Below are positions 4,290 to 61,983 of a stretch of DNA of 64,000 bases, in pieces. The translations under genes and the position numbers were made by a program. Origin of the DNA: Eledone cirrhosa (taxonomy: Eukaryota); NCBI GenBank assembly GCA_964016885.1, contig OZ024747.1:8060001-8124000 (forward strand), in the 5' to 3' direction. The first letter of the stretch is position 1. The number at the start of each line of letters is the position of its first letter. The notes beneath the pieces were generated by a model that worked only from the letters and a program-made list of their open reading frames with translations, was not told the DNA's origin and ran no database searches.

Positions 4290-4418
4290 GGTAGATTCCC
4301 CGGGGGGGGGGGGGGGGGATCGGGAGGTGATCACAGTTAAATAAGGTACTCAATACTTTGGTAGAGTATCATCTTTATTTTATATAGAAATATTTTCTAT
4401 AGAACTAGAACTGTTTCA
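4290..4418 (-). mobile_element. Short (TA)n-flanked insert, probable PLE pseudo-LTR 3' fragment
   Basis: Shares gtactcaatact with the 12368 and 61831 inserts; on the minus strand it begins at GAAACAG. Confidence 0.4.
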
Positions 4419-4441
4419 TATATATATATATATATATATAT

Positions 4442-4797
4442 CTAAGGCGGGTAAAATTCCCGAGATCCATGGACGAGTTCTCTCCAGCGGTCTCTGTCCC
4501 TCATTATCGCTGCCATATCCTGCATCTCCAACAGACCAGTGTCTGTCCTTAGGGCATCAACATATGTTAACCTTGGTCTTCCTCTTCTAGTGTGTCCATG
4601 TAGGGGCTCCCAAAGGAGCACTGAGTGCAATGTCAACTCTGGATGTCGGTGAGCATGTCCAGCCAACCTCAGTCTTCTCTGTGTCACTTTTGAGCTGACT
4701 TTTGGGATGCTCCCATACAGCTCTGAGTTTTTCATCCTCAGTGTATACTGATTAATGTTCAGAGCCATCCTCAGCATTCTCGTGTAGCACCCATCCA
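4442..4797 (-). mobile_element. 3' fragment of an RTE-type LINE ORF
   Basis: RRLRLAGHAHRH..LLWEP..RRGRPRLTYVD..DRDRWR; the stop codon abuts (TA)n. Confidence 0.8.
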
Positions 4798-4800
4798 AAA

Positions 4801-5940
4801 TATATCCAAAATTAATTAAATTAAATTAAATTAAGGGAGTCATGTCTGAGACATGCGCCATATCCACCGTAGAATAAGCTCAAAGATTCCAATGAATAGA
4901 TCCAAGCATTTTATATCAACTAGAAATTGATTGACATATATATATTTAAAATAAACACATGAAACAATCACAGGGGATAATTTGTAAAGTGTGTAATCAC
5001 ACATAGCTAGGTAGGTAACTAATTAAAGTTTAACTAGAGCTTCAAATATTACCTTTTAAAAAATGATTAATCTTCCTTGTATATATTTCATTAAAGAAAT
5101 ATATTTCACCATTAATCCGTAAAGTCACAGTAGTTAAATCTTGGATCATCAGCAAGGAGGAAGAAATAACTGTCTGTGTTTACACATCAAATGCAAATCT
5201 GTGAGTGACCCATCGCACGTGTTGTAATTCTAAAGCTACTAACAACATGCTAGCGTCACCCCAGTAGCGTGAATAGGGTGATCGACAGCTATAAATAGCA
5301 GCCGAGTCCTTTCAACTGAGTTACCTCTACAATTAAGGAGCCGTGTATATATTCAAAATTAATTTAATTAAATTCTAGTTGATATAAAATGCTCGGATCT
5401 ATTCATTGGAATCTTTGAGCTTATTCTACGGTGGACATGGTGCATGTCTCAGACATAACTCCCTTAATTTAATTTAATTAAATTAAATTTTGGATATATA
5501 CACGGCTCCTTAATTGTAGAGCTAACTCAGTTGAAAGGACTCGGCTGCTATTTATAGCTGTCGATCACCCTATTCCCGCCACTGGGATGACACTAGCATG
5601 TTGTTAGTAGTTTTAGAATTGCAACACGTGCGATGGGTCACTCACAGATTTACATTTGATGTGTAAACACAGATAGTTAAATCTTCTCCCTTGCTGAAGA
5701 TCCCAGATTTAACTACTGTGACTTTACGGATTAATGGTGAAATATATTTCTTTAATGAAATATATACAAGGAAGATTAATCATTTTTTAAAAGGTAATAT
5801 TTGAAGCTCTAGTTAAACTTTAATTAGTTACCTACCTAGCTATGTGTGATTACACACTTTACAAATTATCCCCTGTGATTGTTTAATGTGTTTATTTTAT
5901 ATATATATATATATGTCAATCAATTTCTAGTTGATATATA
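4801..5940. repeat. ~1.1 kb fold-back of a ~547-bp circularly permuted non-coding unit (PLE/retrozyme-like)
   Basis: 4801-4925 is inverted at 5373-5500; 4912-5350 is inverted at 5495-5937; the unit start recurs at 5348. Confidence 0.85.
5689..5771 (+). ncRNA. Putative minimal type I hammerhead ribozyme (mirror copy on - strand at 5075-5157)
   Basis: CCTTG-CTGAAGA-(56 nt)-GAAATATATA-CAAGG; the mirror copy has CTGATGA; stem II is long and irregular. Confidence 0.55.
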
Positions 5941-5947
5941 TATATAT

Positions 5948-6230
5948 CATCATCATCACCGTTTTACGTCCGTTCTTCCACGCTAGCATGGGTTAGACAG
6001 GTTGTCCTGTTGTGGGCAGTGTCCAGTCGGATGACCTTGTCTTGCTCATACACGAACTGATTCTGGCTTGATTTCTACAGCTGGATGCCCTTCCTAACAC
6101 CAACCTCATTTACAGTGAGTGCTGGGTGCTTTTTTTCTGTGGCACCTCCACGTCCACTTTATAGTGTGGGCTGGGTGCTGCTTTGCCATGGCACCTCCAC
6201 GACCAGTTTGAAGTGGGAGGGGGTGGGGGC
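5948..6230 (-). mobile_element. SINE with RTE-like 3' tail ending in (GAT)n
   Basis: ggtgttaggaagggcatccagctgtagaaa motif plus acccatgctagc..ggacgtaaaacggtgatgatg tail; related copies at ~19445, 20365, 43300, 48525, 62170 and 62700. Confidence 0.8.
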
Positions 6231-58740: not shown

Positions 58741-59135
58741 GTAGGACGTGAGTTTTATTGTAGTACAATAAAGCAATGCAGATATCGGATAAGAAGCACT
58801 CTACAGTTTGTGGGACTGGAGTATACATAATATATAAGAACAAAAGATGGTTAAAGGAGTTCCATGTATTTTATTATGCGCATTTCAAAAACAAATATCA
58901 TCATGCAATAATATTTGTGTTTTCATCAGATAAAACAGGAGGACATGATATGAAGGCTAAAAAACACTTGTGGATAGTTCAGTTTTAAATCAACATATTT
59001 TTAGCCTTCATATCATGTCCTCCTGTTTTATCTGATGAAAACACAAATATTATTGCATGATGATATTTGTTTTTGGAAATGCGCATAATAAAATACATGG
59101 AACTCCTTTAACCATCTTTTGTTCTTATATATTAT
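58741..59135. repeat. (TA)n-flanked insert with a ~137-bp near-perfect inverted repeat
   Basis: Arms 58827-58963 / 58998-59135, one single-base indel, 34-nt spacer. Confidence 0.95.
59024..59095 (+). ncRNA. Minimal type I hammerhead ribozyme (mirror copy on - strand at ~58867-58937)
   Basis: TGTTTTAT-CTGATGA-AAACACAAATATT..GATATTTGTTTTT(G)-GAAAT-GCGC-ATA-ATAAAATA; palindromic stem III ATGCGCAT. Confidence 0.8.
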
Positions 59136-59164
59136 ATATATATATATATATATATATGAAGGAA

Positions 59165-59520
59165 ATATAAGAACCAAATAATAAGCATACAGACGTTCCC
59201 ATGGACAACCAGTCACACACTCCTCTGTTATGGCCTGGAGACCTTTAATAAACAGATTAACATCTACTTGAACATTGAATTCCTCACTAAACTCATTACC
59301 TTTTCTCAGCAACTCTGAGCATGGTTTGTACTGCTCTCACAAGCTATTCATCTAAAACCCAGTTTCCTTAATGATAACCAAGATTGTGGAACTCTGTCAA
59401 AGGCCTTCTCCAGATCCAACTAGGTATAACGGTTTACTCTTAGCTAGAAATTTTTCTTGTAGTTGCCTCACTGAGAAGAGAGCATCTGTGGTGCTCCTTC
59501 CTGGTACAAAACCAAAGATA
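59165..59520 (-). mobile_element. Degraded RTE RT fragment
   Basis: LQAITEECVTGCPWERLYA and FGFVPGRSTTDAL remnants. Confidence 0.7.
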
Positions 59521-61165
59521 TATTTATTCAGTGCTTCTTACATATGTTTTAGCAGAAATGTTTCAATGTCTTCCTTTGAGATTCATTTAACATTATAAGC
59601 TATTCTGTGTATCTTTTCTACTCAGACTTAAACAATTCATTTGTTTACTTCCATGTTTTGGGCATCAATTTGTTTGGTACATATCTTCAGAGGAGATTCC
59701 TTTAAATGTTGTATTGCACTTGTTTGAATGAATAATTTTGTGGGAAGGTTAAGTTCATTATGTAAATGGTAATTAGACCAACCAATCTTTTTAGGAATCG
59801 TTGGCAGTGGAGGTAAGAGGAATGGGAGAAAATGTTATTGGTTCCTAGCAGAGAATGGTCAAATCTATAGAATTAATATCATTTACTTTGTTTATATATG
59901 GTGAGTTTTATTCTGTAAGTTCTGATAACTAACTAAATGTTATTTACAGTCTGAGTTCAAATCCCGCCGAGGTTAACTTTGCCTTTCATCCTTACGGGGT
60001 CGATAAAATAAAGTACCAGTAATGTACTGGGTAATTGCTGGCCTTGCGTCAAAAGTAGAAACAGTTATATTCCTTATCACTATTACTTCCTTTCTGGTTC
60101 TGTCTGTAGGAAGTTGAATCAAGTGTGGAGACTTCTTTTCTCTTTTGTTTATTGAGAGAGTAATTTATCAAGGTTCCACTCGAAATTTTATAGCTGATTT
60201 TGTAACCCTGATGGGGAAGGGGTCACCTTAGGATAAAGATAAGGGTTTGAACTGAGTTTTATTAAGTTTTAGATGATGAATTTGAGTTTTAGTTTCTCTA
60301 TATATTTTTGGCTGTTACTACATATAATATATATATAATTTACCAATTCAGATTAAATACACATTGTAAATATTACTGTTATTTAGGGGTATACTGCATT
60401 TTTTTTCTTCTGTTTTTGAAGTGGTGTTAAGTTACACCTATTATGTATCCAAGTTGGTTTAGTCAGCTGATATGATGGTGGTGGGGAGGTTATCATTTAT
60501 AACTGTGTTGTTGGTAGTTGTTGTTTTGTTCATCAACTAATGATATAGTTTGATATTACATGCATGTATTGTATTTATCATGTAGATGCCAAGTAATGAT
60601 AATAATAATTTAGTTGAGTGGTTAGGGAGTAAACAATATTGTTAATATTGTTTGCATGTTTTGTATTACTCCTACAGATGCCAAATAATGATAATAGTTG
60701 TTTAGTTTGGTGGAGAAGTATTATTTGTGTATTACTCTTAGTTTGGTTAGAGATGAGCAGAGATAGCTGGATATCATGTGGTTCTGGAGATATAGTATTA
60801 ATTAAGCTGTACTATATTGATATTGGTTGGTGGCTGGTGGAAATATTTAGATATTACATACATGTATTGGATTATTTGTCATGTAGATTTGAAATCATGG
60901 TAATATTAGTTTAGTGAAGGTAGCATGGCTTAATGGTTAGAGAATTGGATAAGCAATAATGAGGTTATGAGTTCAATTCCTGGACTGGTCGATACATTAT
61001 GTCCTTGAGCAAGTGCCTCGTTTACCTTAAAAATGTGAGGGGGACAAAGCAACATTTGTTGATTCTTAAAGTATTGCTTATGGTGCCTTTCCGGGACCCT
61101 ATTACATAAGTAAAATTTTGCGATAATTAAATTTTATATATTCAAATATTCGGATATAAAATAAT

Positions 61166-61349
61166 TGTTTCTACTTTAGGCACAAGGCCAGCAATTACCC
61201 AGTGCATTACTGGTACTTTATTTTATCGACCCCGTAAGGATGAAAAGCAAAGTCAACCTCGGCGGGATTTGAACTCAGATCGTAAAGGGACGTAACTATG
61301 CTGGAAAGCATGGAGTCCGACTCTCTACCTATACTGCCAATCCACCGCC
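61166..61349 (-). mobile_element. Full-length tRNA-derived SINE (Meta-like core) with 18-bp TSD
   Basis: Head ggcggtggattggcagtataggtagag, B-box gagttcaaatccc; TSD attcggatataaaataat at 61148-61165 and 61350-61367. Confidence 0.9.
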
Positions 61350-61830
61350 ATTCGGATATAAAATAATAAGCTTAAAAAGAATTTATTATATCAAATAAAC
61401 AAAAAATAAAACATAGACGTTTGAAAAAGTGTGTGTGTGTGGGGGGGGGGGGTCCCCTGGCACCCCCCTGAAACAAGGCCCTTGTCCTTGAGCAAGACAC
61501 TTATTTCGTGCTGCTCCTTCATCCAGTAGTTGCGACCAGTAAATAGTATAAGTAATAGAGAGACCAATGGAAACATTGTTTCTTTGGTCCAATTTGATGA
61601 GTTCCTCCCTACTCAGTAAGCAAATGAGGTCTGGTATCTTATTGATCAATCAAATCAAATTGATTGAATATTAGTTTAGGAGGGTAGATGGCGTGAGAGT
61701 AGAATTGGTTGTGCTGGTTGTAATTCTGATTATAGTTATTGACCAAAACCCTTAAAACTGTTAACAAACAATTGTTTGTGTAAACAGAAACTTCTAAAGT
61801 AGAAAACTATATATATACATATATATATAT

Positions 61831-61983
61831 AACGAAGGAAGTGTGGTAAGTAACCAGGTGGACCATAACGCACCAAAGTACTCAATACTGGCTAGTAGAG
61901 TGGGTAATAGGAAAAGAGTCAGGACCCCGATGGGTGAGCTCCGGCTGTTTCAACCTAGGTGTTGAAACAGCCGGAGCCCTGGC
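61831..61983 (-). mobile_element. (TA)n-inserted PLE pLTR-like fragment with a 17-bp fold-back
   Basis: First ~90 bp nearly identical to 12368 onward; hairpin gctccggctgtttcaac-ctaggt-gttgaaacagccggagc. Confidence 0.75.

Follow-up and report, generated by a model that had tools for sequence, protein, structure and literature searches.

Why do short and apparently unrelated inserts in a cephalopod genome so often consist of one sequence written twice, head to head, with a hammerhead ribozyme or half of one inside? The question is raised by a 64,000-nucleotide stretch of Eledone cirrhosa DNA (GenBank assembly GCA_964016885.1, contig OZ024747.1, positions 8,060,001 to 8,124,000 of the forward strand; hereafter the window), in which we recognize five families of such inserts, A to E. 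On the evidence of the open reading frames (ORFs) attached to longer copies, we assign families B to E to the Hydra clade of Penelope-like elements (PLEs), of which the inserts appear to be the pseudo-long-terminal-repeat (pLTR) ends; family A is non-coding. The 3' ends of all five fall at two sites, an insert typically holds one end of each kind, and a bulged hairpin lies just downstream of every site. We are inclined to prefer a scheme in which one RNA is primed at two sites, at its two hairpins, and in which circular RNAs give the full copies.

A structural descriptor scan of the window (CUGANGA, GAAA, a paired stem III, NUH and a stem I of at least 5 bp) gave seven complete type I hammerhead cores, two each in families A, D and E and one in C, compared with a mean of 0.035 and a maximum of 1 in 200 block dinucleotide shuffles; an initial annotation of this DNA had drawn attention to such cores. 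Every insert cited there is indeed an inverted repeat, and some hold, as it had said, the 3' half of the hammerhead alone: the B inserts at 12366-12560 and 61830-61983 and the E insert at 48842-49021. Rfam gave 136 matches at E ≤ 5 in the window without a hammerhead family among them; stem II regions of 31-56 nt are the probable cause of the miss. The microRNA (miRNA) matches in that search are simple repeats or the fold-backs themselves. The features are as follows, in window coordinates, with C3 marking the position of each complete core; tailed arms reach the distal end site and tail-less arms the proximal one.

4800..5374, minus strand: family A tailed arm, a non-coding, circularly permuted unit of ~555 nt; C3 at 5152, cleavage nucleotide at 5080.
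5371..5936, plus strand: family A tail-less arm, spanning a whole unit; C3 at 5694, cleavage nucleotide at 5766.
5391..5420, plus strand: family A bulged hairpin behind the proximal end site.
5505..5522, plus strand: family A bulged hairpin behind the distal (tail) end site, the weakest of ten, with 1 inner pair.
12366..12499, minus strand: family B tailed arm; hammerhead 3' half at 12487-12465, hairpin at 12439-12416, 79-nt tail.
12496..12560, plus strand: family B tail-less arm, starting at the fixed stop site within the stem II loop.
12578..12766, minus strand: family C tailed arm; C3 at 12740, cleavage nucleotide at 12682, hairpin at ~12640-12620.
12768..12895, plus strand: family C tail-less arm, its core broken by a short insertion.
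20288..20351, plus strand: solitary family B tail-less arm between TA tracts, absent from the initial annotation's list.
31221..31443, minus strand: family D tailed arm; C3 at 31409, cleavage nucleotide at 31360, hairpin at 31303-31284, 82-nt tail.
31440..31613, plus strand: family D tail-less arm, the longer of the two; C3 at 31507, 4-nt overlap at the junction.
48842..49021: short family E insert, with its tailed arm at 48935-48842 (minus strand) and hairpin at 48926-48902.
48938-49021, plus strand: tail-less arm of the short family E insert, carrying the hammerhead 3' half.
58739..58998, minus strand: family E tailed arm, ending at the fixed stop site; C3 at 58929, hairpin at 58822-58798, 83-nt tail.
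58998..59140, plus strand: family E tail-less arm; C3 at 59032.
61830..61983: older family B insert with a tailed arm (minus strand), hairpin at 61901-61880 and a decayed hammerhead 3' half; the opposite arm is short and degenerate.
4288..4418, minus strand: sixth family, tailed arm flanked by TA tracts; the same bulged hairpin at 4367-4348.

The sixth-family end also holds a GAAAC hammerhead-like 3' half, and a related insert occurs in another sampled locus (L095).

Such inserts are common. In sixty fixed-position 10-kb stretches from 11 large contigs (600 kb in all) we counted 40 loci (B 12, D 10, C 9, E 6, A 3), which scales to about 200,000 inserts in the 3.0-Gb genome, a rough figure that includes older subfamilies. 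The dense, multi-family, hammerhead-bearing Penelope-type system proposed earlier is present. DNA searches with the B pLTR or the D tail by itself, in which very common words are skipped, gave no match; unless stated otherwise, unbiased arm samples below were drawn from incidental copies and these same stretches. Targeting of (TA)n also held up: (TA)3 occurs within 20 nt after the element 3' end in 114/123 B, 50/73 C, 92/97 D and 63/67 E arms, that is, in 68-95% of arms versus 8.5% of random positions. It is not true, however, that every insert lies inside (TA)n, since the left flank of the family A copy in the window adjoins a fragment of a long interspersed nuclear element (LINE) at ~4440-4800 (minus strand), with no TA tract. 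At that junction the LINE reverse transcriptase (RT) fragment and the tailed A end have bases in common.

The evidence that B to E are pLTR ends is their continuity with coding sequence. In longer copies the D, E and B ends continue into an RT-endonuclease ORF, and the C end leads to the beginning of one at seven or more loci; for C, walking upstream failed and the junction was reached by searching from the ORF start, which is the only part of the ORF seen. The ORF is homologous across the four families. In family D it is intact at 737 aa and would encode an RT with a GIY-YIG endonuclease, the latter assigned from motifs; its protein model has a predicted local distance difference test (pLDDT) score of 92.6, and the top five Foldseek matches are telomerase reverse transcriptases (TERT). 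A Pfam search of the B-E ORFs gave no match, one homologue reaching only E=0.012, and a search of PDB sequences with pieces of the ORFs gave none. The Hydra clade is characterized by a single RT plus GIY-YIG ORF with RW(R/K) (notably RWK), DKG replaced by DKT, a CxCX5C linker, CxxC and CxH, no CCHH, and (TA)n targets (Craig et al. 2021, PMC8557442). In our ORFs the RW(R/K) position reads RWR in B and D and RWI in one E-linked copy, and the B, D and E ORFs have DKT, the CxCX5C linker and CxxC plus CxH around conserved E and N, with no CCHH. On this motif list and a by-eye comparison with published Hydra proteins we classify B to E as new families of a known clade; an assignment to Nematis was considered and overruled by the same list. 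Elements of this clade are generally short, below 3 kb, a descriptive and not a defining trait (PMC8557442); the B and D units, at 3621 and 3815 bp, exceed that norm because their 3' untranslated regions (UTRs) are 1.2-1.5 kb long.

The link to PLE ORFs that had been predicted thus exists for B to E, and with it the description of the inserts as non-coding fails for all but A: the rest are truncated ends of ORF-bearing Hydra elements. The retrozyme label suits A and not B to E. Recent activity is evident at least for family D, in which 32 of 40 scored matches are 100% identical over the first 223 nt and 29 of 150 scored RT matches lie in open frames of at least 744 aa. Several individual loci deserve mention. 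Both arms of one D insert (L312, C4:320954300-320964299) hold a complete open frame of 745 codons, head to head. In another locus (L234, ~1415-1900, minus strand) the start of the C-family ORF is fused straight to the C 3' end, and this copy is internally deleted or template-switched. A further D insert (L093:2068-2682, minus strand) lies ~150 bp from an apparent exon of what we take to be an ERG-type potassium channel gene. Hairpins or hammerheads that belong to further families, none of them recognised, occur in L145 (at 2980), L169 (minus strand), L180 (minus strand) and L279, and the genome therefore holds more than five families.

How, then, do truncated ends come to face each other? In each family the element 3' ends fall at two discrete sites ~60-120 nt apart, and 132 of 140 two-armed inserts combine one tail-less with one tailed end, where 50% would be expected. 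Among short inserts this holds for 27/29 pairs in B, 18/21 in C, 28/28 in D and 18/19 in E (91/97 together), in family A for 17/19 (12 further loci showed one arm) and in long D inserts for 24/24 (the other 16 of 40 loci have one arm or ends that could not be resolved). Either arm may extend further: of 91 pairs, 41 have the longer reach on the tail-less side and 24 on the tailed side, and in 26 the two are equal. In L126, for example, a tailed arm of 151 nt is paired with a tail-less arm that extends from 5279 through the ORF. The two arms of an insert resemble each other 1.4 to 2.8 times more closely than they resemble arms from other loci, and in long D inserts the pLTRs differ at 24/3389 positions in direct and 45/6412 in inverted comparison (0.7%), versus 5.2% between loci. 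Each insert has its own junction, with a short overlap in about half of the pairs and a short filler, often a local repeat, in most of the others. Most folds coincide with a fixed pLTR site, and some are found within the ORF at a distance of kilobases. It had been supposed that insertion builds palindromes around the ribozyme, yet the fold falls wherever the two arms end and is not built around it; the only reason for the doubling of the ribozyme is its position, 20-170 nt in from both ends of the element.

What the end sites have in common is a hairpin. At 10/10 sites in families A-E a bulged hairpin begins 3-7 nt downstream: AT precedes the end site, followed by RCTC-stem-loop-stem-TW-GAGY and usually RCT. 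The outer pair is A-T or G-C and always matched, while the inner stems vary in sequence and yet pair; the distal hairpins of A and E are weak and that of C has a long insertion. In the two whole elements, B and D, the motif occurs only at the end sites. A strict form of it matches 18 times in the 600-kb random sample, with a TA or CA tract no more than 65 nt away in 16 cases, versus 0 times in each of 10 shuffles. By eye it can also be found in published coral and sea-cucumber Hydra elements, namely Hydra-2_Amil, Hydra-1_Ajap (twice, before the ORF) and Hydra-2_Ajap (supplement of PMC8557442). The view that the families are unrelated in sequence is half right: as DNA they scarcely align (best E 0.027), but they have the hairpin motif in common and B to E the homologous ORF as well. 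A tailed arm retains hairpin 1 only and a proximal arm neither, and in 40 long D loci hairpin 2 is found only directly before the ORF start. Should the hairpins serve for docking, an inserted 3' end could no longer be used, and copying would have to begin from the 5' pLTR. Elsewhere in the window, a further fold-back in a TA/TGA tract (13009-13176) is followed by a hairpin of this type and a tail, and 13300-13325 is another such hairpin; we recognised no hammerhead in either.

The second regularity concerns where arms stop. In the short arms of B, D and E there is a fixed stop in the pLTR, less complete in D and E; in D and E it is located ahead of the ribozyme, in B within the stem II loop. 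Among the 58 incidental B arms that extend into this region, 53-55 end within ~25 nt of one site; three arms pass clearly and two by less than 20 nt. Targeted D arms meeting the stop for the first time stop in 27 cases and pass in 13, whereas long D arms meeting it a second time stop in 2 and pass in 16 (p=1.3e-4), the D and E first-encounter counts coming mainly from best-scoring matches and not from a random sample. The difference points to two classes of template. No arm in the 40 long D loci exceeds ~1.4 units, which makes long linear multimers an unlikely source. Passage is seen in 3-5 of 58 incidental B arms versus 8 of 15 D and E arms, a single-family correlation. Six long D arms had seemed to stop at the upstream start site, but these are mostly a BLAST break in low-complexity UTR, and two stops remain (L312 and L339). 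We think it fairly probable that the fixed stop is the 5' end of the RNA, set by a pLTR promoter. YYANWYY is the initiator consensus, and the stop sites match it at 7/7 positions in B and 6/7 in D and E. A start site within the pLTR has been described for two other PLEs (PMC8557442). A splice acceptor at the B stop was considered and rejected, as several arms keep the AG.

The scenario that we find most likely to account for both regularities is the following. The Hydra RT-endonuclease would dock on both hairpins of one RNA and nick both strands of a TA tract, which is self-complementary; the nicked TA 3' ends would pair with the AU just upstream of each hairpin and prime reverse transcription. 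Two such sites would copy the same RNA, one onto each target strand, giving an insert with one proximal and one distal end, head to head, and a short overlap or a templated filler would join the complementary DNA (cDNA) ends. If the RNA is linear and uncut, both cDNAs would run off its 5' end and leave dead hairpins of 200-470 bp. With hairpin 2 absent from inserted ends, copying would start in the 5' pLTR, and the ORF would be accessible only on an RNA whose 5' and 3' ends are connected. The simplest connection would be for both pLTR hammerheads to cut and for the product to be ligated into a circle, and on a circular template either arm could run through the 3' UTR, the ORF and the pLTR again, producing pseudo-LTRs. 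We consider priming at two sites to be very probable. That the template is a circle, rather than the cDNA making a jump, we hold with much less assurance, although we judge it somewhat probable. The full proposition, that Hydra-type elements replicate through an obligatory circular messenger RNA, with the hairpin pair positioning two RT sites and the ~200,000 short hairpins being run-off from uncut RNA, is put forward tentatively.

The hammerheads had been described as minimal, but with stem II regions of 31-56 nt they are not: the minimal PLE hammerhead has short stems, little or no helix III and a palindromic 15.2-16.2. Families C, D and E have a canonical hammerhead near the 3' end with a long stem II. 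The palindromic stem III reported earlier is exact in A, D and E, where it is what a double hammerhead would require, and not in the other families; B has a stable 6-bp stem III. The stems differ among families yet pair in all. The core is conserved in A, C, D and E: non-majority bases make up 0.6% of core columns in D versus 49% at the free N7 (144 copies), and 1.4, 3.6 and 1.9% in A, C and E versus 5.6-11.7% elsewhere. In B, position 8 is A in 40 of 42 full copies (C3 in 32, U3 in 7, A3 in 3); older B subfamilies (L005, L041 and L057) also have A8, with C or U at position 3, and the odd B core is therefore old. Separately, a decayed hammerhead-like core with a short stem II and a near-palindromic stem III lies at 31011-31050 (plus strand), and its CTGATGA at 31011 was excluded as a hammerhead, stem I being unpaired.

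Several observations speak against the circular scheme, or at least against the ribozyme's part in it. Within families there is one clear compensatory pair, in stem I of A (U-A in 16 and C-G in 15 of 36 copies), and this is all that survives of the expected stem covariation; an apparent covariation in C and E links non-pairing columns and reflects subfamilies. When A, C and D are folded freely, stem I forms with low probability. Arm 5' ends show no accumulation at the cleavage site, so that no sign of cleavage is visible in the DNA; in vitro, ribozyme cleavage is not required for reverse transcription of a related element (PMC11167929). Family B is the most abundant and has more-than-unit arms (L221) although its A8 mostly faces C3 and its ribozyme is divided by the stop site. 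Family C has no clean stop, each stop site in B, D and E is just 3' of a U-run, and the initiator match is weak and was chosen after the breakpoints had been seen. As for the pairing of arms, an arm's own partner is strictly its closest relative in just 24 of 77 pairs, and later conversion, or the use of two RNAs from a single source locus, might also make arms nearly identical. The steps of the cycle are proposed here from DNA sequence.

The strongest competitor keeps priming at two sites and dispenses with the circle: RT would run off linear RNA and jump to the matching 3' pLTR, much like strong-stop transfer in LTR elements, the ribozyme being inessential or otherwise used. This accounts for the identical pLTRs and the more-than-unit arms, for a cleavage site free of breakpoints and for the success of B despite its non-canonical core, and the short templated repeats at junctions show that RT or repair does switch template. 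A constant probability of jumping, on the other hand, predicts similar stop rates at each pass, and we see 27/40 on the first encounter and 2/18 on the second; jump-competent particles could rescue that prediction, but the conserved core in A, C, D and E would be left unexplained. We regard jumping as unlikely, though a serious contender. A stall of RT at the U-run or at RNA structure, on templates that are all circles or long read-through RNAs, would make the fixed stop something other than the RNA 5' end, and the U-runs and the weak, post hoc initiator match count in its favor. Long arms nevertheless cross the same sequence 16 times in 18, and most short arms end at or 3' of the site, so the U-run is not included; we find a stall improbable. 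Self-priming, in which one cDNA, or an antisense RNA as in PMC3846280, copies itself into the second arm, is the published reading of head-to-head PLE repeats and would explain private variants common to both arms and the palindromic character of some junctions (the E start site, stem III). It is strongly disfavored because tail-less arms reach further in 41 of 91 pairs, which is impossible for a single folded cDNA; both ends also adjoin a hairpin outside that arm on its sense side, and we consider this origin very improbable. Least credible of all is that the short hairpins are themselves mobile units, akin to miniature inverted-repeat transposable elements (MITEs) or mini-retrozymes, as their very high copy number, similar size and inverted termini might suggest, for every junction differs, the sequence is contiguous with RT ORFs in longer copies, short copies have no hairpin 2, and family A alone behaves as an independent unit.

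Family A fits the favored scheme of two-site priming on circles as a passenger. It has no ORF, and across 30 loci no Hydra protein match could be attributed to it. Its tail leads back into its own body with a unit of ~549-555 nt, several arms are longer than one unit, and one arm (L060) carries two ribozymes at a spacing of 549 nt; across 32 distinct loci that were mapped, arms reach at most ~1.5 units each and there are no long head-to-tail arrays. The circular fold has z = -3.3 relative to 60 doublet shuffles, which is only suggestive. Non-LTR retrozymes (Cervera and de la Pena 2020, PMC7229834; Li et al. 2026, 10.64898/2026.07.22.740005) are likewise non-coding and AT-rich, with a type I hammerhead and more-than-unit copies. 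Family A differs from them in unit length (~550 nt versus 170-400 nt), in occurring as dispersed two-armed inverted inserts instead of long tandem arrays, and in having a pair of cis hairpins through which it is linked to a named PLE clade. We therefore suggest that A works like a non-LTR retrozyme while missing the size and array criteria, and that it may be a non-coding circle borrowing the Hydra protein through the same two hairpins.

There is precedent for parts of this picture, and the inverted copy, the one-sided tail, the hammerhead and (TA)n targeting are already published. Inverted, 5'-truncated copies and one-sided tails are known for PLEs generally, and Hydra hammerheads are, like ours, of type I with an unpaired base after A9 and often a U before GAA (PMC8557442). 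Compared with that account, the hammerheads of our five families differ from the listed motif of Hydra-1_Obim (Octopus bimaculoides), the units are longer (3.6-3.8 kb versus <3 kb), the stem II regions of 31-56 nt are about twice the usual listed length, and the tails measure 60-120 nt instead of 30-40 nt. The words hairpin and stem-loop do not appear in the main text of PMC8557442. The closest experimental parallel is Poseidon PAc of Anolis (Frangieh et al. 2024, PMC11167929), for which internal initiation at two sites that define the tail, nicking and extension of both strands, AT-rich targets and uncleaved RNA as template have been described and a dimer predicted. In our families, in contrast to that account, every end has a bulged hairpin of its own 3-7 nt downstream, ahead of the ORF; the available portion of PMC11167929 states no one-of-each rule, fixed 5' stop or account of the inverted product. 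Hammerhead-made circles were proposed in PMC4209133, which also describes PLE hammerheads, opposite-strand pairs 100-700 bp apart in Schistosoma and U3-A8 variants; the inverted pLTR plus tail was given a self-priming model in PMC3846280, and the available part of PMC13282606 does not mention a hammerhead or ribozyme. In the literature searched, which covered few subscription papers, we found no PLE report of a hairpin pair, a one-of-each rule or a run-off model. The one-of-each end rule, the hairpin at all end sites and the fixed stop passed on the second round are the elements we did not find in print.

More distant systems offer instructive comparisons. L1 twin priming also involves two primings on one RNA and cDNAs joined by a short overlap, but it inverts different parts of the RNA from a variable internal start, whereas the present inserts have two fixed starts and hold two copies of a single stretch. 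LTR retroelements make minus-strand strong-stop DNA when RT starts near the RNA 5' end and runs off; in contrast to them, there is no tRNA primer or integrase here. Two other inverted repeats in the window are a pair of 129-bp sequences, 92% alike and 1.3 kb apart (59943-60071 and 61158-61286), that look like DNA transposon termini, and an old repeat of ~210 bp, 72% alike, at 54774-55404.

The inverted, tailed and partly tandem insertions of PLEs, and the role of their hammerheads, are stated as open in PMC8557442, PMC11167929 and PMC3846280. The counts available from this genome separate the published models and provide a candidate RNA signal, clade-wide, at both RT start sites; together with intact young ORFs, these regularities make the PLE cycle and the ribozyme's role directly testable. 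They also tie a retrozyme-like element to a named helper clade through common cis signals, and they concern inserts, roughly 200,000 of them, that are prone to misannotation as MITEs or miRNA hairpins. If the scheme is correct, every insertion would be two-armed and any RNA with both hairpins, such as that of family A, would enter both strands of a (TA)n tract; one cycle would then explain the PLE tail, the inverted copy, the pseudo-LTR and the ribozyme, and the hairpin pair would be a defined cis signal for an enzyme that carries out RNA-templated insertion on two strands.

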